Assembly (NCBI GenBank): GCA_020057115.1
Contig: JAGVGJ010000001.1
Coordinates: forward strand, 12,164 to 76,163
Reading direction: 5' to 3'
Origin: Candidatus Omnitrophota bacterium
GTDB taxonomy: Bacteria; Omnitrophota; Gorgyraeia; 2-01-FULL-45-10
DNA: 64,000 nucleotides
Notes under the pieces: generated by a model
Told to the model about the DNA's origin: nothing
The model's database searches: none
Seen by the model: only the letters and a program-made list of their open reading frames with translations
Program-made: the position numbers and the translations under genes
In this document: positions 5,763 through 52,867 of the stretch, piece after piece
How the letters are laid out: each line of letters starts with the position of its first letter
Position numbering within the stretch: position 1 is the stretch's first letter

Positions 5763-5852
5763 AACTGATCAAAGGTAAACCCGGTGAAAGCCGGCGTCAC
5801 AAAACTATAGGGTCTAAATCTCTGGAGACAGGGACAAGACAGCCAGTTGCCG
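5763..5852 (+). promoter_or_regulatory. Candidate c-di-GMP-I (GEMM) riboswitch aptamer
   Basis: GGTAAAC then a ccggt-GAAA-gccgg hairpin (GNRA tetraloop), then CGTCACAAAAC, then GGGTCTAAAT (tetraloop-receptor-like), then GACAGCCAGTTGCC. This lines up with the GEMM-I consensus as recalled from memory, not from a run search: GGCAAACC-P1(GAAA)-GACGCAAAGCC...GGGUCUAA...AGCCnGnnGCC. Confidence 0.55.
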
Positions 5853-5885
5853 TTTAAGCTTACGTCAAAGCCTGGATTGAATATC

Positions 5886-19145: not shown

Positions 19146-20306
19146 ATGGGCGCAAAAAAGAGCACGAGAGACAATGCGGCTAGAGTTCTTTTACACGTGA
19201 GCAGGATAATGAGTTCATCTCCAGAACTTGATACGGTGAATGACGCCATACTGCGGGAGTCAAGAAAGGCGCTTGGGGCTGACCACGTGTCATTGTTCCT
19301 CCTCGACCAGGAGACAGGATACCTTGACCTTATCAAGGCCGAGGGGTTTACCGCAGACCAGATAGACAACCTGAAGCTTCTCGGCAGCTGGGAGGTCATA
19401 AACGAACAGCTTGTGGAGAAGAAAAAGATCGTCGTGGCCAATGATGTCCGGAAGAGCCAGTTATTCAAGGATAAGACGCTGCCATTCTCTTCCGAGAGGC
19501 TTCCGATCCACTCATTTCTTGCCGCGCCGCTGGTAAAGGACGGCGCGACTGTCGGGGCCCTGATAGTAAGCAATAAAAAGCGGTCGAACCACCATTTTAC
19601 GAAACATGACGCGGATTTCTTGAGCACCCTCTCAAATTACATCGCCATAGCGCTTATCAGCGCCAAGCTCTACATAAAGCTGAAAGAGCTCTTCATAACC
19701 ACCGTAAAGTCCCTCGTAAAGGCTGTCGACGCCAAGGACCAGTATACTAGTGGCCATTCGGAGAGGGTGATGAAATACGCCTACACGATCGGCAAGGAGA
19801 TGGGGCTCGGCCACGATACGATGGAGAACCTGAAATTATCGAGCCTCCTGCATGATATAGGCAAGCTCGGCATAAAAGAGAGCGTTCTCTCCAAGCCCGG
19901 AAAGCTCTCCGCCCGCGAGAGGCGCCAGGTGAGCCATCATCCTGCGATCGGAGTAAAGATAGTGGATTCCATAGCCGATTCCCACAAGATAATACGGGGC
20001 ATACTCGAGCATCACGAACACTTTGACGGGAAGGGTTACCCGAACGGGCTTAAGGCAGGCGAGATATCGCTGGAAGGGCGGATAATAGCCGTTGCCGATA
20101 CATTCGACGCCATGACCACAGCCAGGCCGTACAACAGGAAATATTCGCCCGAAGAAGCGCGCCTTATGGTGAAGAAGGGCTCGGGGACGCAGTTCGATCC
20201 CCATGTGGTGCGGGTTTTTATGAGGTCATATTCGAAACATCCGGAAGTCTGGCAGGCTCTGGCATGGGCGGGACACGGCCTGGCCGAGGGCGTTGACATT
20301 TGGTAG
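19146..20306 (+). CDS. GAF-domain HD-GYP phosphodiesterase (c-di-GMP)
   Basis: HDIGKLGI and HHEHFDGKGYPNGL motifs. Confidence 0.8.
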   Translation: MGAKKSTRDNAARVLLHVSRIMSSSPELDTVNDAILRESRKALGADHVSLFLLDQETGYLDLIKAEGFTADQIDNLKLLGSWEVINEQLVEKKKIVVANDVRKSQLFKDKTLPFSSERLPIHSFLAAPLVKDGATVGALIVSNKKRSNHHFTKHDADFLSTLSNYIAIALISAKLYIKLKELFITTVKSLVKAVDAKDQYTSGHSERVMKYAYTIGKEMGLGHDTMENLKLSSLLHDIGKLGIKESVLSKPGKLSARERRQVSHHPAIGVKIVDSIADSHKIIRGILEHHEHFDGKGYPNGLKAGEISLEGRIIAVADTFDAMTTARPYNRKYSPEEARLMVKKGSGTQFDPHVVRVFMRSYSKHPEVWQALAWAGHGLAEGVDIW

Positions 20307-20332
20307 GCTCGCTGTTATAATTATTCGTTTGC

Positions 20333-20406
20333 GGGGCTGTGGTGAAGAGGGATCACATCACAATGGCATTGTGAGGTCACGAGTTCGATTCTCGTCAGCT
20401 CCACCA
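20333..20406 (+). tRNA. tRNA-Ala (anticodon GGC)
   Basis: Hand-folded cloverleaf. Acceptor ggggctg/cagctcc with the G3-U70 wobble (AlaRS identity element), anticodon loop aTGGCat, T-arm acgag-ttcgatt-ctcgt, encoded CCA. Confidence 0.8.
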
Positions 20407-43332: not shown

Positions 43333-44865
43333 TCACCCCCATAGATTCCTGTCCAGGCTCCTGTACGAAATCGCCTCCGAGACATGGTGTGCTTCGATGA
43401 TGTCTTTACCGTCAAGGTCTGCGATCGTGCGGGAGACTTTAAGTATCTTGTCATAGGCCCTTGCGGATATACCAAGCTCCAGTATCGCAAGTTTTAAGAG
43501 CTCTTCACCTTCCTTGTCCATTATGCAATACTTTTCAAGCTCTTTAGACTCAAGCCTTGAATTAAAATGCGCGGCGGCATCTTTATAACGATCTCTCTGG
43601 AGCTCGCGCGCCTTGTCGACGCGCTTTCTTATCTCGGAGGACGGCTCGCCGCACCTCTTTGAGGTCAGATGGTCCAAGTTTAGCCGCGGCACCTCGAGAT
43701 GTATGTCTATCCGGTCTAGTAGCGGCCCGGATATCTTCGATAGGTATCTCTGTATCTGCACAGGCGTGCAGTGGCATTCGCGTTTTGGGTCGGTAAAATA
43801 TCCGCAAGGACAGGGGTTCATGGCAGAAACGAGCATGAACTTGGAAGGGTATGTCTCGCTGCCTGATACCCGCGTCACCGTCATCGCGCCTTCCTCAAGA
43901 GGCTGCCTTAATACTTCAAGGACATTTCTTTTAAATTCCGGAAGCTCGTCGAGAAAAAGGACGCCGTTATGGGCAAGAGATATCTCACCCGGCGTAGGGT
44001 AAGTGCCGCCGCCCACAAGGGCCGCGTCGGAGATCGTGTGGTGCGGAGAGCGGAAGGGCCTAGTCCCTATAAGCCCTTTACCCTGGATGAGGTTCCCGGC
44101 AATAGAATGTATCTTGGATGTTTCCAGGGCCTCTTCAAATGTCATCTCCGATAATATGGTAGGAAGCCTCTTTGCCATCATGCTTTTACCGGAACCCGGA
44201 GGGCCTATCAACAGGACGTTGTGGCCTCCGGCGGCTGCGACCTCAAGGCCGCGCTTCACATGCTCCTGGCCCTTGACATCATTAAAATCGATCTTATGTT
44301 TGGAATTTCGCTTAAAGACCTGCTCGGCGCTTGATTCGACAGGCTTGATATCCGTTACCTTATTAAGGAAGTCCACGACCTCTTTTAATGTGGCTGCAGG
44401 ATATGCCTCTACATCCTTTACCAAGGCGGCTTCTTTCGAATTATCTTTGGGGATCACGAACTTTGTCTTGTTCAGTTTCTTCAGGCCTATAGCCATGGGG
44501 AGGACGCCCCTTACGGGTTTTAACCGTCCGTCGAGCGATAGTTCGCCCACAAAAACGAAATCCTGGAGGTCCGTACGGTCAAGGAGCCCTTCCTGGGAAA
44601 GGACCGATAATGCAATGGGGAGGTCAAATGAAGCGCCTTCCTTCTTTATGCTCGCAGGCGCGAGGTTGATGGTCAGTTTCTTGGCGGGGAATGACAGGCC
44701 GGAATTCTTCATGGCGGCTTTTATCCTTTCGCGGGATTCTTTTATAGCTGTGTCAGGGAGCCCCACTATATTAAATGCAGGTAGTCCCGCTCCAATGTCA
44801 GCCTCGACCATGACTTCGTGGGTATCAAGGCCTATTACGCAACATGAATAGATGCAAGAGATCAT
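43333..44865 (-). CDS. comM: Mg-chelatase-like AAA+ ATPase YifB/ComM
   Basis: 510 aa with Walker A GPPGSGKS and a ChlI-type C-terminal region. Confidence 0.9.
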   Translation of the reverse strand: MISCIYSCCVIGLDTHEVMVEADIGAGLPAFNIVGLPDTAIKESRERIKAAMKNSGLSFPAKKLTINLAPASIKKEGASFDLPIALSVLSQEGLLDRTDLQDFVFVGELSLDGRLKPVRGVLPMAIGLKKLNKTKFVIPKDNSKEAALVKDVEAYPAATLKEVVDFLNKVTDIKPVESSAEQVFKRNSKHKIDFNDVKGQEHVKRGLEVAAAGGHNVLLIGPPGSGKSMMAKRLPTILSEMTFEEALETSKIHSIAGNLIQGKGLIGTRPFRSPHHTISDAALVGGGTYPTPGEISLAHNGVLFLDELPEFKRNVLEVLRQPLEEGAMTVTRVSGSETYPSKFMLVSAMNPCPCGYFTDPKRECHCTPVQIQRYLSKISGPLLDRIDIHLEVPRLNLDHLTSKRCGEPSSEIRKRVDKARELQRDRYKDAAAHFNSRLESKELEKYCIMDKEGEELLKLAILELGISARAYDKILKVSRTIADLDGKDIIEAHHVSEAISYRSLDRNLWG

Positions 44866-44880
44866 CTTTTTGTTCCTTTC

Positions 44881-45261
44881 TTATCTGTAATCATCTTCTG
44901 TAACTGCGTTCTCGAAAAGCTCTATATTTTCAGGTGCATAGTTCTCGCCCAGCTTTACTGACACCACATCAATGCGCCAAAACGAGTCTACGCGGCCGCG
45001 CCTTTTTAGATAACAGAGGGCATTCTTGATGATATGGCGCTTCTTCTTCCATGTCATGTTAAGGTAGGGAGGGCCGAGAGAAGAAGTGGCTCTGGTCTTT
45101 ACTTCGACGAATACGGTGTAAGGACCCTTTCTGGCGATGATGTCCAGCTCGCCAAAATAGGTCCTGTAATTCGTTTCAAGTATCCTGTAGCCCTTGGACT
45201 TTAGGAAGCCGCAAGCGATCTTCTCACCCGAGGCGCCAAGCAACTTGTTCTCCCGGCCCAT
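44881..45261 (-). CDS. yraN: YraN-family (UPF0102) endonuclease-like protein
   Basis: GELDIIA...FVEVKTR motif. Confidence 0.8.
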   Translation of the reverse strand: MGRENKLLGASGEKIACGFLKSKGYRILETNYRTYFGELDIIARKGPYTVFVEVKTRATSSLGPPYLNMTWKKKRHIIKNALCYLKRRGRVDSFWRIDVVSVKLGENYAPENIELFENAVTEDDYR

Positions 45262-45266
45262 GCTAA

Positions 45267-45530
45267 CTACCCTCCATACGCCTCTAAAACGAGCTTCGCT
45301 ATCTCATCCTTTATCTCCCGTTTCAGAGGGTTGACCGTGTTATACCACTTACCATCCTTGCTGCTCTCGCTAGGCATGCTGACGAAGAGCCCGTCCTTGC
45401 CTTCGACCACTCGGAAGCCTTTTATCTCAAGGCTATCGAGTATGGTCACGTCGCAGAAGGCCTTGGTCGCGCCCGAGCCGTCCAGCTTGTGCATCCTTGA
45501 TACAGCCAATCCTAGTTCATTCTCTGCCAT
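45267..45530 (-). CDS. spoVG: SpoVG-family regulator
   Basis: DGLFVSMPS...PLKREIKDEIAKLVLEAY aligns to the SpoVG family. Start set at ATG 45530 with SD AGGAGG upstream. Confidence 0.75.
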   Translation of the reverse strand: MAENELGLAVSRMHKLDGSGATKAFCDVTILDSLEIKGFRVVEGKDGLFVSMPSESSKDGKWYNTVNPLKREIKDEIAKLVLEAYGG

Positions 45531-45586
45531 TTTTATGTCACCTCCTTTCAAATCCTTTAATTTGGGGATTTTGCACCCCTACTATA

Positions 45587-45616
45587 TAAGACGCTCAAAA
45601 TGCCCAAATTGTTGCA
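45587..45616 (-). promoter_or_regulatory. ECF-sigma-type promoter (TGCAAC-N17-CGTCTTA), copy 1, upstream of spoVG-yraN-comM
   Basis: Minus-strand -35 TGCAAC (plus 45611-45616) and -10 CGTCTTA (plus 45587-45593). Part of a 43-bp repeat also found at 47193-47240. Confidence 0.5.
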
Positions 45617-45654
45617 AATTATTTTAAAATATTTTTCGGATGTGCGCTTCTTCC

Positions 45655-45794
45655 CCCTCTCGGGATGGGTAAGGTGTCTTTCCGCGAACGCTCCATTCTC
45701 GGAGGGAATGTCGCTCGGAAGGCCGCAATTTTCGGTGAAAAATCGCGGCCTTCGACGTCGCTCCAAGACACCTTACCCATCCCTCGGGGGCCCC
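45655..45794. repeat. Palindromic repeat element, copy C (same orientation as A)
   Basis: cgggatgggtaaggtgtc...cttcgacgtcgctccaagacaccttacccatccctcg, about 90% identical to copy A. Confidence 0.8.
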
Positions 45795-45871
45795 GCATCG
45801 AGGACCGAAAAAGTAGGAGGGTGGAACTGGAGGGGGAGATTTACTTCTTGAATTATTTCACGGACCGTACT

Positions 45872-46711
45872 ATGATATTTCGTGATATGGGGATATTTGA
45901 GAAAGCGCAGATAGATTTTCTCACCGGGTTCTTCTTAAGGGAATCCTTCGGCCAGTTCCTCGAAAAGGCTATGCGCGAGGCCACGGCCACAAGCGGCGTA
46001 GTTACGCTTGCGCTAGTTGACCTTGACCACTTCAAAAATTTCAACGATAAATTCGGCCATGACTTCGGCGACGAGATCCTGAAGTATTCCGCCAGCACCA
46101 TCAGGCTCACTATGGACGAGAACCAGACCTATTTCTTCCGTTACGGAGGCGATGAATTTATCGTGGTCTTTGCAGGCAAGACGCAGAAAGAGGCCCTCCA
46201 GCTGTTAAAATACTGCAGGCATAACCTCCTCCACAGGCCTTTCCTCTTAAAGAATAAATTCCAGAAGATCACCATGAGTATCGGCGTCGCAAGCTTCCCG
46301 CATGACGCCCAGACCGTGGAGGACCTGATCGCGAAGGCTGATAATGCCATGTACTATTCCAAACGCCACGGACGCAACCGCATAACAATGTGGAGCTCTA
46401 TAAGCCATCTCAAGGCGCGAAATTATTTTATCCTGTTCGGCACCCTGGCCATCATGGTGCTTTCCACTTTCGTAGCGGCATATGTGCCGCCGATCAAAGA
46501 AAGCATAATGGCCTTTATCGGTAACATCAAAGAGCTCCGAAAGGTCTCTTTTGACAAGATCGTGCTTAAGAGCGGCGCTGTGTTTGAAGGCAGGATAGTG
46601 AACGAGGATGCCACTACTATATTTTTGCAATTGAACCTAAAAGAGGGGGAAGGGTCGCTCAAGCTTGACAAGTCTAAGGTGTCAAAGATAATACGCGCCA
46701 AATCTCGTTAG
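45872..46711 (+). CDS. GGDEF-domain diguanylate cyclase with a C-terminal TM helix and ~90-aa tail
   Basis: RYGGDEF motif. Start set at ATG 45872 because the track ORF extends upstream into the palindromic repeat. Promoter TTGAAT-17-TATGAT immediately upstream, so possibly leaderless. Confidence 0.7.
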   Translation: MIFRDMGIFEKAQIDFLTGFFLRESFGQFLEKAMREATATSGVVTLALVDLDHFKNFNDKFGHDFGDEILKYSASTIRLTMDENQTYFFRYGGDEFIVVFAGKTQKEALQLLKYCRHNLLHRPFLLKNKFQKITMSIGVASFPHDAQTVEDLIAKADNAMYYSKRHGRNRITMWSSISHLKARNYFILFGTLAIMVLSTFVAAYVPPIKESIMAFIGNIKELRKVSFDKIVLKSGAVFEGRIVNEDATTIFLQLNLKEGEGSLKLDKSKVSKIIRAKSR

Positions 46712-46739
46712 GGTCAAGGGGCCAGGGTCCGGGGTCCAG
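46711..46739. repeat. GC-rich oligo-repeat immediately after the GGDEF gene stop
   Basis: gggtcaaggggccagggtccggggtccag. Confidence 0.8.
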
Positions 46740-46746
46740 TCGGATA

Positions 46747-47187
46747 TTAAAATCCTATCTTATTACGGCTATTAAATCTCTCAAGCACTTTCGATGCTTC
46801 TTTTTCGCCGCCTTGCTTCCACGCCTCGTTTATCATCACTAGCATCTTGGTCGTTTTTGAATCTACCACCCACTTTGCCCCCAAAATAAGAGTAGCAACG
46901 AGCAGCTGCAGGAAGTATCTCGGGGTAAGGAATGAGAGCGTGAATGATATAATAGCCAGCACCAGATATATGTTTATGCGTTTCATGAAATTACCCTTTC
47001 TGTTTTTAAGTTTCGTATCTTTTAGGAATTCTTCTACGGAATCGAATGCGCACACGGCTTTCTCCAGGCAGCTAGGACAGCTTGCCAGGTGCCCGGCCAG
47101 CTCTTCTCTTTTTTTGCCGCGCAAGGCTCCGCTAAGATAATCCGCCACCTCTATGTCGCTCGGGTGCTTTATTCCGGTATAGGTCAT
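46747..47187 (-). CDS. Zinc-finger (ZAS-like) single-TM anti-sigma factor
   Basis: HxxxCxxC motif (HLASCPSCLEKAVCAF) and a central TM helix. Strong SD AGGGGGA. ATG overlaps the sigma gene stop (ATGA). Confidence 0.6.
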   Translation of the reverse strand: MTYTGIKHPSDIEVADYLSGALRGKKREELAGHLASCPSCLEKAVCAFDSVEEFLKDTKLKNRKGNFMKRINIYLVLAIISFTLSFLTPRYFLQLLVATLILGAKWVVDSKTTKMLVMINEAWKQGGEKEASKVLERFNSRNKIGF

Positions 47188-47849
47188 TTTTGTCCCCCTA
47201 CTATATAAGACGCTAAAAACGGGCAAATTGTTGCAAAAAAAGTTAAAAAACATTTTAAAGCGGCGCGCAGCCTCTCTTTTCCCCGTCGGACGTGGCTTGA
47301 AACAGTGTTCTTAGGCATGCGGGTCATCTTCGCTATCTCGTGGTATTTCTTGCCGTGCAGCAGGTGCAGTTTGATCACCAATTTTTCCACGCTTGGCAAG
47401 TCCTCTATGGACTGGTCTATCTTTTTTGACAGCTCCTGCCTGGAGAGTTCGTCTGCGGGCACAGAGCCGCCGGCAAAAAGGCTAGAGATCAAGTCGACCT
47501 CATCCCCCGTATCCGTATGCGGCAGTATCTCATATCGAACCCCGCGCCTGGCCTTCCTCAAATGCGACACAGCCGCATTCTGCGCGAGCATCGAGATCCA
47601 GCAGGGGAGGCTTGAGATATTGTCGAGAGAAGCCATCTTATCGCTGCGCCACATCGAAGAGAGCGCATCCTGCAGGATATCATCGACGTCATGCGATGTG
47701 GTCTCAAAGCCGCACCGCCTCAGGCGTTTTTCGATCGATATCCGCATGAGGCGGGAATACTTTTTCGTGAAGGCTTCCCAAGCCGCGATATCCCGCGCGG
47801 CACAGCCTTCGATAATGGCCTTATCGTCTTCAAAACGTTCGGTAGGCAT
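47184..47849 (-). CDS. ECF-type RNA polymerase sigma-70 factor
   Basis: Region 2 and region 4 signatures (...LQDALSSMW..., ...LHGKKYHEIAKMTRMPKNTVSSHVRRGKERL). Start taken at the internal ATG (MPTERFED). Confidence 0.8.
   Translation of the reverse strand: MPTERFEDDKAIIEGCAARDIAAWEAFTKKYSRLMRISIEKRLRRCGFETTSHDVDDILQDALSSMWRSDKMASLDNISSLPCWISMLAQNAAVSHLRKARRGVRYEILPHTDTGDEVDLISSLFAGGSVPADELSRQELSKKIDQSIEDLPSVEKLVIKLHLLHGKKYHEIAKMTRMPKNTVSSHVRRGKERLRAALKCFLTFFATICPFLASYIVGGQK
47206..47235 (-). promoter_or_regulatory. ECF-sigma-type promoter (TGCAAC-N17-CGTCTTA), copy 2, inside the 3' end of the sigma gene just upstream of the anti-sigma gene
   Basis: Minus-strand -35 from plus 47230-47235 and -10 from plus 47206-47212. 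39/43 identical to copy 1. Confidence 0.45.
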
Positions 47850-48021
47850 TCCATAGAAGATATCATCTATATGTAAAAATGTCAATTATATTTTATTTTT
47901 AATCAAACAATGGAACCGGCTATTTTTATCCGGGATGTTGCCTATTTAGATTATTATGATATAATTATAACGCTAATCATAAGGACAGTCCATGAACCTT
48001 TTCCACAGATAAAATTTTTGT

Positions 48022-48057
48022 AACAACTCTTCCGGGAACGAAGAGTTGTTTTTTTCC
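48022..48057 (+). terminator. 11-bp perfect hairpin plus T7 run in the leader of the large signalling gene (terminator/attenuator-like)
   Basis: aacaactcttc-cgggaac-gaagagttgtt followed by ttttttt, ending 14 nt before the 48071 start. Confidence 0.4.
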
Positions 48058-48070
48058 CCAAGAGGAGCCG

Positions 48071-51000
48071 ATGGCAGGACCCTACAGCAGGCTATTCGAA
48101 TTCACCAGAGACGGCATATACAGCTACACGTTTGCCGACGGGAAGATACTATCCGCGAACCACGGTTTTATCAGGATCCTTGACCTCGACTGCAAGCCAC
48201 CCGAAGTCGAAGGAAGGCTCCTTAAAGACGTGATGACCTATGTCGAAAAGGAGGGTACGGTCCGGAGGCTCCTGGAAGAGAAAGGAGAACTTCATAACTA
48301 TGAATACCACTTTAAGACGCTGAAGGGCGAGGACAGGTGGGTCATCTACGATTCATTCCTTTCCGTGGATCCGGTGACCGGCGAGAGAGTGGTAGAGACG
48401 ATAGTAAAAGATATAACCGACCGTAAGAAGAAGGAAGATGAGGCCAGGCGGTACCGCGCCCATCTCGAGGAGCTTGTAAAGGAGCGCATAGAAGAGTTGA
48501 AAGCCCTCAATGAACAGTTGAGGCGCGAAGTCGCGGAGCGCAAGGAGGCGGAGGAGAGGCTTGCCAAGATAAACAGCTGCTTCCTGAAATTCGGTTCCGA
48601 CTCGCTTGAGAATATAAAGCTGTTGACAGCCCTCTTGGGCGAAACTATGGGCGCGACATGCGCCCTTTATAACCGGCTGGAAGAGGGCATGCTATGCTCT
48701 ATAGGGCAATGGAACACCCCTTCCGATTATAACGCTATCGATAAACCCGAAGGGCATTTATGCTATGACGTTATAAGGCACGGTACCGACATACCTTTCA
48801 TAGTAAATAATCTTCCGGGAACGCCTTATGCGGCTACAGATTCCAATGTAGCCAGATATAACCTGCGCACTTATGTCGGCGTGGCTGTAAAGTCCGGCGG
48901 CAGGTACATAGGCTCGCTTTGCGCTGTTTATCAGAAAGACGTCATCCTTACGGAAGACGATAAGAAGCTGATAGGGTTGATCGCCACAGCCGTGGGCATA
49001 GAGGAAGAGAGATTGAGGATGGAGGGCGACATACTTGAGTCGAAAGAGTATCTCTCCAAGATCATAAATTCTATCGGCGATCCCGTGTTCGTAAAAGACA
49101 GGCAGCATCGCCTGATACTGGTAAATGACGCCGAATGCCGTCTTGCAGGCCATTTGAGAGAAGATGTTACAGGAAAGACGGATTATGACTTCTTCCCGAA
49201 AGAGCAGGTCGACATATTCTGGAAGAAGGATGAGATGGTGTTCGAGACCGGCGAAGAGAATATAAACGAGGAGACGATCACCGATGCCCAAGGCGTGACT
49301 CACACTATCATCACGAAGAAGACGCGCTATATCGACCCGGAGGGTAATAAATTCATAGTCGGCATCATAAGGGATATAACAGACCGCAAGGCGACCGAAG
49401 AACAACTCCAACAGAACTACGATATCCAGAAAGCCGTAAACTCTCTCCTCAACCTTTCGCTAAGAGACATGCCTTTAGAGGAATTCCTTAAAAATACGCT
49501 CGACCTCATAATGTCCATCCCCAGGCTTTCGCTTGAATCGCGCGGCGGCATATTTCTGACGGAAGATCATTCTGATACCCTGAGGCTAAAGGTGCATAAC
49601 GGCCTTACCGAGCAGATACAGAAGGCATGCGGGAGCGTCCCATTCGGCAAATGTCTCTGCGGCAAGGCGGCGCTGACAAAAAAGACGCAGTTTGCCGCAT
49701 CTATCGACGAGCGTCATGAGACAACTTATGAAGGCATCATCCCTCACGGCCATTACTGCGTTCCGGTGCTATGGGCAGACAAGGTCCTCGGAGTAATAAA
49801 CTTTTACTTGAAAGAGGGGCATCCCTATAAAAAGAGTGAAGAAGATTTTCTGGTTGCCGTAGCTAACACCCTGGCCGGCGTCATAGAGCGCAAGCGCGTG
49901 GAGGAAGAACTAAAGAAGAGCGAGGCGAGTCTCGCGGAAGCCCAGAGGATAGCGCGCCTGGGGAACTGGGAGTGGGATATAAAGGCCAATAGCATAAAAT
50001 GGTCGGCCGAGGTATACCGCATATTCGGGAGAGCGCCGTCTGATTTTAACGGCACGCTCGAAGCATTCCTGGAATATATTCATCCCGCCGACAGAGGATT
50101 CGTTAAAGAAGCGTTGGATGACGCGCTGCACAAGCAAGAGAACTACTCCATAGACCACAGCATCCTGCTGCCGAACGCAGTGGAGAGGATAGTCCACGAG
50201 CAGGGAGAGATCACCTATGACGGGAACGGCGAGCCCGTGCGCATGGTAGGGACTGTCAATGACATAACCGAACGAAAGATCATGGAGGGTGAGCTCAGGA
50301 AGCATCGTGACCACCTTGAGGACTTGGTCAAGCAGCGCGCCGCCCAGATCATCGAGGTCAATGAGAGCCTCCAGCGCGAAGTCGCCGAGCGTAAGCGCGT
50401 CGAAGAGGCGTTGAGGGAGTCGGGGGAGAATTACAAGACCCTGTTCGAGCATTCTCCTATAGCGCTCTTCCAGGAAGATTGCTCCGGCATGAAGAAGTAT
50501 ATAGACAGTCTTAAGGCGACCAGCGGCGCTGACCTGAAGAAATATTTTGAAGACCATCCCGAAGTCTTAAAGGAGTGCATAGAAGCGATAAAGATAGCAG
50601 ATGCCAATAAGCAGGCCTTAATGCTTTTCGACGCGAGGGATAAAGAAGAGCTTTACAGGGCGGTCAAAAATATACTCATCGCCGATGCTTATAGCGATTT
50701 TGCGGAGGCGATCGTAGCTTCTAGCGAAGGAAAGTATGCTCTCGAACACGAGACCAGCATACATACGCTTACCGGAGCCAAGAAATATTGCACTGTCAAG
50801 ATATCGACCGTTGCGGGAAGCGAGACGACATGGGCGAAAGTATTGATATCTATGGTCGATATAACGGAGCGCAAGCTTGTAGAGGAAGCGCTCGAGATAT
50901 CGGAGGCAAACTACCGCGCCATATTCGATACGGCCAATGACGCCATATTCGTCTTTGATATTAAGACAGGGGTTATAATCGACGCCAACAGGAAGGGCTG

Positions 51001-52867
51001 CGAGATGTACTGCTATTCCAGGGACGAGATACGCTCTCTGGGCATAGACATGCTAAGTTCAGGCGAGCATATCTATACGAAAGACGGCGCGGACAGCTGG
51101 ATACAGAGAGCCTCTAACGGAGAGCCGCAGATAGTAGAGTGGCTTTCGAAAGATAAGGCCGGCCGCCTATTCTGGGTCGAGATAAACCTGCGCAGGGCCA
51201 TAGTCGGCTCCAAATACTGCCTTCTTGCGGTAGTGCGCGACATAACTGAGCGCAAAGAGTCCGAAGAGAAGCTGAGAGAGAGCGATCTCAGATTCAGGAA
51301 AGCCGTATTCGATGCGACCTTCCCGATAATGATCCATTCGGAAGACGGCGACGTCATGCTTCTCAATAAGGCCTGGACGGAATTATCCGGTTATACCCAG
51401 GAAGACATACCGACCACCTCTGTTTGGGCGGAGAAAGCCTATGGCAGTAAAAAGGCCATCGTAAAAGCCGATATCGACAAGTTGTACAAGCTGGATGAGA
51501 GGGTCAAGGAGGGCGAGTATGTCATAACCGCCAAGACCGGCGAAAAGAGGGTATGGGATTTCAGCGCCGCCCCTCTCGGGGCCCTTCCTAACGGCAAGCG
51601 TATCGTCATGTCTATGGCGATGGATATCACCGAGCGTAAGGGCGCGGAGAATCAGATCAAGGAGCTTAACAGGGAGCTCCTTAAGACGAATAACATGCTT
51701 AAGCAGCTGGCACTCAAGGATTCCCATACCGGGCTTTACGGCCACAGGTATCTGGCGGAGGCGATCCTCAAGGAATTTTCCAGGGCCAAGAGAGAGGCCA
51801 CGCCACTCTCAGTCATAATGCTCGATATCGATTATTTTAAATCGATAAACGATGTCTACGGCCATCAGTTCGGCGATATTGTTTTAAAGCAGTTCGCTGC
51901 GCACCTGAAAAAGGCGGTGCGGATATACGACATAGTCATACGTTACGGCGGAGAGGAGTTCATAATAATATCTCCGGGTTCGGACAGGGCGGGCGCCCTG
52001 GTGCTCGCCAGGAGGATATTGAATACTGTGAGCCTGGCCCGTTTTGGCGACAAAGAGCATAGCGTGAAAATGAAGATGAGCGCGGGCGCGGTCTCTTACC
52101 CGGAGGACCGGGCCGTGAAGGCCATGGACCTCGTTAATTTCGTCGACAAGATACTGAATAAGGCCAAGGAAGAAGGCGGCAACAGGGTATGCTCGTCTGT
52201 CGACATGAAGAGGCCCAAGGCATCCGTTACCATGGAAGAGGAAGAGGATATAACGGACGTAAAGCTCCTCAAAGAAAAGATAGAGAAGCTTACCAAGCGC
52301 GGCAACCAGAGCCTTATCGAGGCCATATTCGCCTTCGCGAAGACCATAGAAGTTAAGGATAATTATACGGGAGAGCATGTCGAAAAGGCCGTCCATTACG
52401 CGACCGAGATAGCCAAGGAGCTCAATCTTTCAAAGAACGAGATAGAGCTGATAAAGAAGGCCGCGGCGCTTCATGATCTCGGCAAGGTGGGGATAAGCGA
52501 TAAGATACTGCGCAAGAAGTCAAAGCTTACCGAAAAAGAGTTTGAAGAGATAAAGAGGCATTCGCAGATAGGTGTCGATATATTGAGGCCCGTCCACTTC
52601 ATGCATGACATAATACCCCTGATCCTCCACCATCATGAAAGATGGGACGGTAAAGGATATCCCGACAAGCTTAGAGGCGACGAGATACCGATCGGCGCGC
52701 GCATAATCTCCGTGTCAGACGCCTATGACGCTCTTACGTCGAACAGGCCTTACCGTAAAGCATACCGCAAGAACAAAGCCATCGAGATCATAAAGAGGGC
52801 TTCCGGGACGATGTATGACCCCAGGATCATAAATGCCTTCTTCAAAGTCCTGAAAGATGGAAAATAG
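48071..52867 (+). CDS. Large multi-domain c-di-GMP signalling protein: multiple PAS domains, GAF, coiled coils, GGDEF, HD-GYP
   Basis: 1598 aa with repeated PAS signatures, RYGGEEF (GGDEF) and HDLGKVGI...HHHERWDGKGYPD (HD-GYP). Confidence 0.85.
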   Translation: MAGPYSRLFEFTRDGIYSYTFADGKILSANHGFIRILDLDCKPPEVEGRLLKDVMTYVEKEGTVRRLLEEKGELHNYEYHFKTLKGEDRWVIYDSFLSVDPVTGERVVETIVKDITDRKKKEDEARRYRAHLEELVKERIEELKALNEQLRREVAERKEAEERLAKINSCFLKFGSDSLENIKLLTALLGETMGATCALYNRLEEGMLCSIGQWNTPSDYNAIDKPEGHLCYDVIRHGTDIPFIVNNLPGTPYAATDSNVARYNLRTYVGVAVKSGGRYIGSLCAVYQKDVILTEDDKKLIGLIATAVGIEEERLRMEGDILESKEYLSKIINSIGDPVFVKDRQHRLILVNDAECRLAGHLREDVTGKTDYDFFPKEQVDIFWKKDEMVFETGEENINEETITDAQGVTHTIITKKTRYIDPEGNKFIVGIIRDITDRKATEEQLQQNYDIQKAVNSLLNLSLRDMPLEEFLKNTLDLIMSIPRLSLESRGGIFLTEDHSDTLRLKVHNGLTEQIQKACGSVPFGKCLCGKAALTKKTQFAASIDERHETTYEGIIPHGHYCVPVLWADKVLGVINFYLKEGHPYKKSEEDFLVAVANTLAGVIERKRVEEELKKSEASLAEAQRIARLGNWEWDIKANSIKWSAEVYRIFGRAPSDFNGTLEAFLEYIHPADRGFVKEALDDALHKQENYSIDHSILLPNAVERIVHEQGEITYDGNGEPVRMVGTVNDITERKIMEGELRKHRDHLEDLVKQRAAQIIEVNESLQREVAERKRVEEALRESGENYKTLFEHSPIALFQEDCSGMKKYIDSLKATSGADLKKYFEDHPEVLKECIEAIKIADANKQALMLFDARDKEELYRAVKNILIADAYSDFAEAIVASSEGKYALEHETSIHTLTGAKKYCTVKISTVAGSETTWAKVLISMVDITERKLVEEALEISEANYRAIFDTANDAIFVFDIKTGVIIDANRKGCEMYCYSRDEIRSLGIDMLSSGEHIYTKDGADSWIQRASNGEPQIVEWLSKDKAGRLFWVEINLRRAIVGSKYCLLAVVRDITERKESEEKLRESDLRFRKAVFDATFPIMIHSEDGDVMLLNKAWTELSGYTQEDIPTTSVWAEKAYGSKKAIVKADIDKLYKLDERVKEGEYVITAKTGEKRVWDFSAAPLGALPNGKRIVMSMAMDITERKGAENQIKELNRELLKTNNMLKQLALKDSHTGLYGHRYLAEAILKEFSRAKREATPLSVIMLDIDYFKSINDVYGHQFGDIVLKQFAAHLKKAVRIYDIVIRYGGEEFIIISPGSDRAGALVLARRILNTVSLARFGDKEHSVKMKMSAGAVSYPEDRAVKAMDLVNFVDKILNKAKEEGGNRVCSSVDMKRPKASVTMEEEEDITDVKLLKEKIEKLTKRGNQSLIEAIFAFAKTIEVKDNYTGEHVEKAVHYATEIAKELNLSKNEIELIKKAAALHDLGKVGISDKILRKKSKLTEKEFEEIKRHSQIGVDILRPVHFMHDIIPLILHHHERWDGKGYPDKLRGDEIPIGARIISVSDAYDALTSNRPYRKAYRKNKAIEIIKRASGTMYDPRIINAFFKVLKDGK

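Follow-up and report, generated by a model that had tools for sequence, protein, structure and literature searches.

The window analyzed here is a stretch of 64,000 nucleotides from a Candidatus Omnitrophota bacterium (contig JAGVGJ010000001.1, positions 12,164 to 76,163 of the forward strand). Its minus strand carries the gene for an extracytoplasmic function (ECF) sigma factor, an overlapping anti-sigma factor gene and, beyond a single plus-strand gene, the operon spoVG-yraN-comM (Table 1). A 43-bp sequence occurs twice at this locus, once ahead of the anti-sigma factor gene and once ahead of spoVG. The two copies are probably target promoters of the adjacent ECF sigma factor, one of which would drive the anti-sigma factor gene alone and the other spoVG-yraN-comM.

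Table 1. Genes and predicted promoters of the sigma/anti-sigma and spoVG-yraN-comM locus (window coordinates).
Feature	Position	Strand	Details
ECF sigma factor gene, 221 aa	47184..47849	-	Pfam Sigma70_r2 and Sigma70_r4_2; TIGR02937 77.2 bits (cut-off 42.9)
Predicted sigma-70-type promoter of sigma factor gene	47857..47885	-	TTGACA 47880-47885, N17, TG-TATCTT 47857-47862, 7 nt to ATG at 47849
Putative ECF-type promoter, copy 2 (P-anti-sigma)	47188..47255	-	-35 TGCAAC 47230-47235; -10 CGTCTTA 47206-47212; AT-rich upstream tract
Anti-sigma factor gene, 146 aa	46747..47187	-	zf-HC2 22.1 bits, just under the 22.2 cut-off
Putative ECF-type promoter, copy 1 (P-spoVG)	45569..45636	-	-35 TGCAAC 45611-45616; -10 CGTCTTA 45587-45593
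spoVG, 87 aa, operon gene 1	45267..45530	-	SpoVG 69.5 bits (cut-off 29.6), E 2.7e-19
yraN (UPF0102), 126 aa, operon gene 2	44881..45261	-	UPF0102 90.8 bits (cut-off 23.6)
comM/yifB, Mg-chelatase-like AAA+ ATPase, 510 aa, operon gene 3	43333..44865	-	TIGR00368 654 bits (cut-off 362)
GGDEF diguanylate cyclase gene	45872..46711	+	In the slot between the two units; not driven by the repeat

The sigma factor possesses only the sigma-2 and sigma-4 domains, as is the case for ECF (group 4) sigma factors, and its core stops near residue 199. Its closest solved structure is that of Bacillus subtilis SigW (E 2.7e-10). Scores against the NCBIfam equivalogs for RpoE, SigW, SigM, SigZ and others (33-64 bits) are far under the respective cut-offs (130-267), none of which was reached, and the protein therefore lies outside these named sigma factors. 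Close homologues are few, an indexed search returning five proteins of which one was identical. The term "Omnitroph" is absent from the main text of the ECF reclassification paper (PMC7826278), and no simple rule applicable to this sigma factor was found in the study on a DNA-specificity code for ECF sigma factors (PMC7776599). A sequence-only reading of the window had described a translationally coupled sigma/anti-sigma pair, which is borne out by the ATGA overlap between the sigma stop and the anti-sigma start and by the Pfam and NCBIfam matches that confirm the gene identities. The co-encoded anti-sigma factor has the HxxxCxxC motif of the zinc-associated anti-sigma (ZAS) type, which is invariant in an alignment of nine orthologues. 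While this motif and zf-HC2 agree with the zinc finger of the earlier description, the single transmembrane segment described there does not hold, as hydropathy gives two adjacent hydrophobic segments (approximately residues 71-89 and 92-110) followed by a strongly conserved C-terminal block. The protein may thus span the membrane as a hairpin whose two ends are cytoplasmic. The identities given before to SpoVG, YraN and ComM were all confirmed by family models above their cut-offs in Pfam and NCBIfam.

The 43-bp core of the direct repeat lies at 45576-45618 and 47195-47237 and is identical at 39 of the 43 positions (two matches in the window versus zero expected from 100 shuffles). Its double occurrence had been noted from the sequence, but with three variable positions, whereas four differ (c/a, t/c, c/g and c/g). 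Similarity between the copies extends over 68 nt at 81% identity, and this was the sole strong direct repeat in a search of positions 44800-48200. On the minus strand both copies read TGCAAC-N17-CGTCTTA without mismatch (45587-45616 and 47206-47235), exactly as had been reported, a form that can also be written TGCAAC-N17-CGTCTTATATAGTAGGGG. A search of the window relaxed to two mismatches yielded one extra match, which is unrelated, and the weaker sites in the window are three other CGTCTTATA (CGTCTTA-type) strings, all of which are -10-like without a -35 element. Copy 1 was confirmed to lie upstream of spoVG-yraN-comM. In the intergenic region, Rfam gave only a chance-level match.

The form of the repeat is that of an ECF target promoter, with AAC at -35 and CGT(C) at -10 separated by 16-17 nt. 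Validated promoters of Streptomyces coelicolor sigma-E include TGCAAC-N17-CGTCTG and TGGAAC-N17-CGTCTT (PMC6767563), a match that upholds the AAC/CGTC-type assignment made from the sequence. The housekeeping promoter of the lineage is canonical, since the gene for tRNA-Ala (20333-20406) is preceded at 20293-20321 (+) by a perfect TTGACA-N17-TATAAT. The possibility that the repeat is a housekeeping promoter was ruled out by this promoter and by the TTGACA-N17-TATCTT ahead of the sigma factor gene, and a sigma-70 reading of TTGCAA...TATAGT was rejected on its spacing of 24-25 nt.

The arrangement at the locus recurs in relatives, where the order is sigma factor gene, anti-sigma factor gene, a variable gene on the opposite strand and then spoVG, yraN and comM. 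The motif stands both before the anti-sigma factor gene and before spoVG(-yraN-comM) at loci L001, L007, L057, L077 and L112; at L052 the anti-sigma copy is a TGCAAT variant. The sigma factors of these six loci are only 39-42% identical to that of the window, and the spoVG orthologues of L001, L007, L052, L057 and L077 are 66-78% identical. The second copy is present before spoVG in six of the six loci long enough to judge. At L001, where the sigma factor is 42% identical, one motif copy occupies a true intergenic gap between the sigma and anti-sigma genes and the other lies upstream of spoVG. Spacer length shifts jointly in both copies of one genome, being 17 nt in the window and 16 nt at L001. 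The window ComM is 75% identical to its orthologue in fen_1322, an Omnitrophota metagenome-assembled genome (MAG). The two-site arrangement of the putative promoter is conserved in at least six divergent relatives whose DNA was read.

Genomes and metagenomes were scanned with the pattern TGCAAC-N16/17-CGTCTTATATAG. The scan of one genome per species gave 41 loci, with 12 matches in seven Candidatus Omnitrophota MAGs (six of them in fen_1322) and 30 single matches in 30 loci of other phyla, versus approximately 35 expected by chance (equal base frequencies, our own arithmetic). The metagenome scan added 73 loci, which brought the matches in Omnitrophota MAGs and metagenomes to 95, 82 of them unique with full context; L018/L093 and L021/L084 are each one contig present in two collections, and L023/L037 and L001/L112 are near-identical pairs from different assemblies. 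A sense open reading frame (ORF) of at least 40 aa starts within 251 nt of 85 of the 95 sites. Nine of the other ten end at a contig edge, and the last (S076 in L103) is the first of two copies approximately 160 nt apart, sharing the gene of the second. At 82 of the 85 sites the motif lies 6-251 nt upstream, in sense, of a gene from a cluster with a Pfam-matched representative. Families were assigned from one scanned representative per cluster, and the match of the anti-sigma cluster is 0.1 bit below the Pfam cut-off.

Twelve of the sites precede an anti-sigma orthologue (11 clustered among the 85, plus one that is truncated and outside them), and at all ten anti-sigma sites with usable flank (at least 105 nt) an orthologue of the ECF sigma factor (40-65% identical) is encoded directly upstream. 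In the window and at these 12 sites, the position and orientation of the motif are those of an internal anti-sigma promoter of the Escherichia coli rseA P3 type. This placement agrees with the proposal of the sequence-only reading that the anti-sigma factor gene has its own internal promoter, which would depend on the sigma factor. An ECF paralogue encoded elsewhere might instead read a real promoter here, with its position next to the pair reflecting cross-regulation. That no copy lies upstream of the sigma factor gene itself would fit such a scheme, ECF sigma factors with a similar AAC/CGTC consensus can share promoters (PMC6767563), and the same 18-base pattern occurs near unrelated ECF sigma factors in other phyla. 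However, at each orthologous locus with DNA the motif is tied to the start of the anti-sigma factor gene that accompanies this sigma family, and another sigma factor is encoded by none of the 85 downstream genes, making a different sigma factor a rather unlikely reader of the motif.

The sites in other phyla include four of the 30 non-Omnitrophota matches (L011, L015, L040 and L042, in MAGs of Clostridia and of Parabacteroides of the Bacteroidota) at which the 18-base pattern lies 5-60 nt upstream of an ECF sigma factor gene. The pattern also recurs with conserved flanks in two other genome groups (L016, L024, L025 and L013, L020, L039). Because of these positions and flanks, some of the chance-level matches are presumably real ECF-type promoters in other phyla.

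Recognition of the repeat by the adjacent sigma factor thus appears probable, but several points weigh against it. The usual argument from a sigma factor to its promoter is autoregulation (PMC7826278); as this sigma factor gene lacks the motif, the assignment rests on linkage to the anti-sigma factor gene. At L044, a more distant locus (40% identity, GC-rich), a sigma/anti-sigma pair is present without the motif. The scan required both boxes to be exact and says little on degenerate sites. Finally, conservation in the upstream TTTTAAAA tract and in the AGGGGG from +1 to +7 exceeds the needs of the sigma factor; a further factor may contribute to it, as may recent copying of entire promoter cassettes of the kind suggested by L103.

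Both boxes are fixed across sites and the sequence of the spacer varies. Beyond the bases fixed by the search, conserved features are a T at -1 (96%), the upstream TTTTAAAA tract, TTT after TGCAACAA, a T-run before CGTC and TAGGGGG after the -10 element, with 71-98% conservation of non-fixed positions that lie well away from the -35 and -10 boxes. Counting the last C of CGTC as -10, which we take to be the appropriate choice of flipped-out base, places a conserved T/A pair at -1/+1. This pair agrees with the pyrimidine/purine rule that describes ECF start sites (PMC7776599), and transcription is therefore predicted to start near A47199 for the anti-sigma factor gene and near A45580 for spoVG. 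The predicted anti-sigma leader is only 12 nt long (AGGGGGACAAAA) and starts with AGGGGG, which would serve as its ribosome-binding site. The predicted spoVG leader of 50 nt would start with a hairpin, GGGGTGCAAAATCCCC (45564-45579), and end with an AGGAGG ribosome-binding site.

Conservation of this extent outside the boxes, together with a palindrome closely 3' of the motif at some ORF6N genes, could also indicate that the block, and CGTCTTATATAGTAGGGGG and the AT tract in particular, serves chiefly as a binding site for an additional regulator or as a conserved 5' RNA element, with the ECF-like boxes making up only part of the signal. The AGGGGG, however, doubles as ribosome-binding site at the anti-sigma and some spoVG genes, and the T/A pair fits an ECF start site with no need of a second factor. 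The AT tract at that distance has, moreover, what we take to be the look of an UP element, and an additional regulator as the main cause of the conservation is quite unlikely.

The families encoded downstream of the motif, pooled over many species, are dominated by ORF6N proteins (21 sites), SpoVG (13), IS200-like Y1 proteins (12) and the anti-sigma factor. These are followed by N6/N4 DNA methylases (four sites), Gp49/HigB-like proteins and YhcG PD-(D/E)XK nucleases (three each), and RhuM-Fic, CopG, RelE and Phd/YefM proteins (two each). BrnT, DUF4258 and HTH_3 (Cro/C1-type) proteins, RecA, a Cas4-like nuclease, a 23S-rRNA-IVP protein and an HTH_17 protein were found at one site each. Sites per genome are few, with six in fen_1322, three on one 85-kb contig and two in the window. 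Of the proposal that spoVG-yraN-comM forms a small regulon of the sigma factor, the first part gains support in that the motif is kept there in relatives, with dependence on the sigma factor a probable reading of the sequence, but "small" does not hold, since many other genes follow the motif in relatives.

The prevalence of mobile-element-type genes in this list (IS200-like, toxin-antitoxin, ORF6N and RhuM) raises the alternative that the repeat is related to mobility or recombination, resembling a miniature inverted-repeat transposable element (MITE) or a cassette boundary, rather than being a promoter. The three copies of L103, which lie inside duplicated units of approximately 160 nt, could be taken in the same sense. 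Orientation and distance to the start codon are nevertheless always promoter-like, the repeat is kept at orthologous core loci across approximately 40% protein identity with a variable spacer, and neither terminal inverted repeats nor copies in 2.9 million viral contigs were seen, all of which makes a mobile repeat very improbable. Likewise, the 43-bp repeat of the window has no inverted arms or terminal inverted repeats of the kind that identify a MITE or a repetitive extragenic palindromic (REP) element. A phage-borne promoter was rejected, there being no match among the viral contigs.

Several local structures accompany the motif in relatives. At L103 (-), three promoter copies occur within 1.2 kb, each in a duplicated unit; the units precede a helix-turn-helix (HTH) gene and a Phd/YefM-type antitoxin gene, an unscanned ORF following in either case. 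Promoter cassettes seem to have been copied in their entirety. The ORF6N leaders of L004, L006 and L018 contain near-perfect palindromes of one type 20-60 nt downstream of the motif (aaggtcacaaattgtgacctt, ggtgtcacaaagtgtgacacc and aaggtcgcaatttgcgacctt), which could be operators through which a repressor adds a further layer of control to the ECF promoter. At L077 and L097, the sigma stop and the putative anti-sigma promoter are separated by an inserted GC-rich hairpin of approximately 80 nt that ends with GGGACAACAATTT, a mimic of the -35 region, and L114 and L118 have GGGACAACAATTT in place of TTGCAACAATTT. The hairpin could represent a repeat element with half of the promoter either as its target or as part of its own sequence.

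Copy 2 of the putative promoter overlaps the sigma coding region. Since the sigma domains end at approximately residue 199, translation of copy 2 yields the C-terminal 22 residues of the protein (residues 200-221; 47187-47252), which confirms the location in the 3' end of the gene given by the sequence-only reading. Counted from the T of TGCAAC, the first base of the sigma stop codon in orthologues lies at -118, -117, -17, -10 or -4 (before the motif), at +11 or +20 (inside it) or at +49 (overlapping the anti-sigma ATG). This floating of the stop codon relative to the motif argues for selection on the DNA rather than on the peptide, and the equal conservation of the non-coding spoVG copy likewise places the constraint on the DNA, the tail being an overprinted promoter. 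The sigma factors of four lineages (P0001, P0002, P0003 and L081) end in ...ASYIVGG followed by QK or RI, a string that is the translation of CGTCTTATATAGTAGGGGG and is absent in most others; at the P0002 and P0003 loci, for which gene tables rather than DNA were used, the motif is deduced from the translated tail only.

These shared tails, and the fact that short Cys-rich extensions regulate some ECF sigma factors (PMC7826278), might suggest that the 22-aa Cys-containing tail is a functional extension which modulates the sigma factor and that conservation of the DNA repeat stems from the peptide it encodes. Yet most orthologues stop before or inside the motif with the DNA still kept, the spoVG copy is conserved without encoding the peptide, and the presence of an anti-sigma factor is atypical for extension-regulated ECF sigma factors (PMC7826278), so a functional role of the tail is very unlikely. 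In contrast to sigma factors with a Cys-rich C-terminal extension such as ECF238, the tail occurs in four lineages only and the anti-sigma factor is always there. On this comparison, the 22-aa tail is read-through of a conserved, putative promoter and not a regulatory extension, and its lineage specificity, confirmed by comparison with the C-termini of relatives, is a by-product of the floating stop codon.

The sigma factor gene itself seems to be transcribed differently. The boxes upstream of it match those of sigma-70-type promoters at 10 of 12 positions, and the TG is present. In eight lineages the region has the form TTGAC(T/A/C)-N17/18-TAnnnT, then 6-8 nt and then the ATG, and contains neither a Shine-Dalgarno sequence or other ribosome-binding site nor the ECF motif. 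The upstream region, which the sequence-only reading had singled out for comparison with relatives, thus holds a sigma-70-type promoter and no third ECF copy. Autoregulation, which is usual although not obligatory for ECF sigma factors, is not indicated; the motif is found upstream of the anti-sigma factor gene instead. This arrangement suggests that the sigma mRNA is leaderless or nearly so, is driven by sigma-70 and is not subject to positive autoregulation. Further upstream, the gene for a 1598-aa protein (start at 48071) is closely preceded by a terminator-like hairpin and T-run (48022-48050, +). No plus-strand gene ends there, and the hairpin could either act as an attenuator or terminate a small RNA.

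From the observed sequences, positions, orientation and conservation, we infer the following circuit. The sigma factor would be produced constitutively through a sigma-70-type promoter of its own. Its mRNA, probably leaderless, would in the window run into the overlapping anti-sigma factor gene. The membrane-anchored ZAS-type anti-sigma factor would keep the sigma factor inactive until it is released. Free sigma factor would then guide RNA polymerase to TGCAACAA-N15-CGTCTTATA. From the copy within the last 22 sigma codons, a short-leader transcript encoding the anti-sigma factor alone would be produced, so that additional anti-sigma factor is made on demand, giving negative feedback without amplification of the sigma factor. 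The other copy would drive spoVG-yraN-comM, and in relatives the same promoter would also drive DNA-related and mobile-element-type genes.

The candidate regulon, as listed from sequence, comprises spoVG-yraN-comM, recA (in at least one lineage), DNA methylases, PD-(D/E)XK nucleases, ORF6N and RhuM/Fic genes, IS200-like Y1 genes and toxin-antitoxin modules. A broader interpretation, offered tentatively and in some doubt, is that this Omnitrophota ECF regulon has at its centre DNA transactions together with selfish or defence-type genes, and not the cell envelope, as an ECF-driven counterpart of the SOS response or of a competence-like response, in which a constitutive, leaderless sigma factor has its sole feedback through a sigma-dependent anti-sigma factor. 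A DNA-centred regulon, if true, would widen the range of processes under ECF control.

Other features of the region bear on its surroundings rather than on the repeat. The gene in the slot between the two units varies, being a GGDEF gene in the window and at the P0002 locus, a PilZ gene at L001, a methyltransferase gene at L057 and nothing at L007 and L077. The start of the GGDEF gene in the window is uncertain, 45872 or 45887 rather than 45665, and the domain begins at residue 81 of the ORF starting at 45665. A cyclic di-GMP-I riboswitch is present at 5764-5854 (+; 64.6 bits versus a gathering score of 35), and the 1598-aa protein (48071-52867) was assigned PAS, GGDEF and HD-GYP domains by reading of its sequence alone. 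A nested palindromic element of approximately 170 nt occurs twice in the window (45636-45810 and approximately 1580-1750), in the same orientation and with approximately 88% similarity. The element is strongly structured, with folding energies of -86 and -95 kcal/mol for the two strands (z -5.5 and -6.9), and no Rfam family matches it. One copy sits between the putative spoVG promoter and the GGDEF gene, and the element looks MITE- or REP-like and is separate from the 43-bp repeat.

A literature search found no experimentally described gene regulation in Omnitrophota, a phylum with few or no cultivated members for which this locus offers a concrete, testable circuit. The locus defines a sigma factor, an anti-sigma factor, a promoter of high information content and a likely target list that can be read from sequence, and its wiring, a constitutive sigma factor with a sigma-dependent anti-sigma factor, would be a natural example of negative feedback without positive autoregulation. 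It also carries a warning for annotation in that a conserved C-terminal "extension" of a sigma factor is here a translated promoter and not a domain. The system is a new ECF system with a familiar mechanism, unusual wiring and DNA-centred likely targets. The promoters of B. subtilis sigma-W, sigma-M and sigma-X belong to the AAC/CGTC class. In contrast to the sigma factors of this class, the likely targets here are not envelope genes.

In form, the Omnitrophota promoter resembles the S. coelicolor sigma-E class, with (T/G)G(C/A)AAC at -35 and CGTC(T) at -10 separated by a T-rich spacer of 16-17 nt (PMC6767563). Placement of spoVG under an alternative stress sigma factor, with SpoVG as a secondary regulator downstream, has a parallel in the sigma-B-dependent yabJ-spoVG of Staphylococcus aureus, although sigma-B is a group 3 sigma factor controlled by partner switching rather than an ECF sigma factor, and the partner of spoVG is yabJ there and yraN-comM here (PMC4005690). 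As in ECF groups that are not self-regulated, such as ECF32, the sigma factor gene is not preceded by its own target promoter (PMC7826278); unlike in ECF32, the anti-sigma factor gene directly downstream carries the putative promoter, and the target motif can therefore still be read from the locus. Among known systems, rseA P3 of E. coli comes nearest; this promoter lies within rpoE, depends on sigma-E and drives rseABC with a 228-nt leader (PMC8595263). There, as is proposed here, an ECF-type promoter within the sigma coding region drives the anti-sigma factor gene without the sigma factor gene and so provides extra negative feedback. The two differ in that rpoE is also positively autoregulated, whereas the Omnitrophota sigma factor gene has only a sigma-70-type promoter, and in that the predicted leader here is approximately 12 nt. 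They differ further in that the putative promoter here overlaps the sigma stop region, where the promoter is fixed and the stop codon moves.

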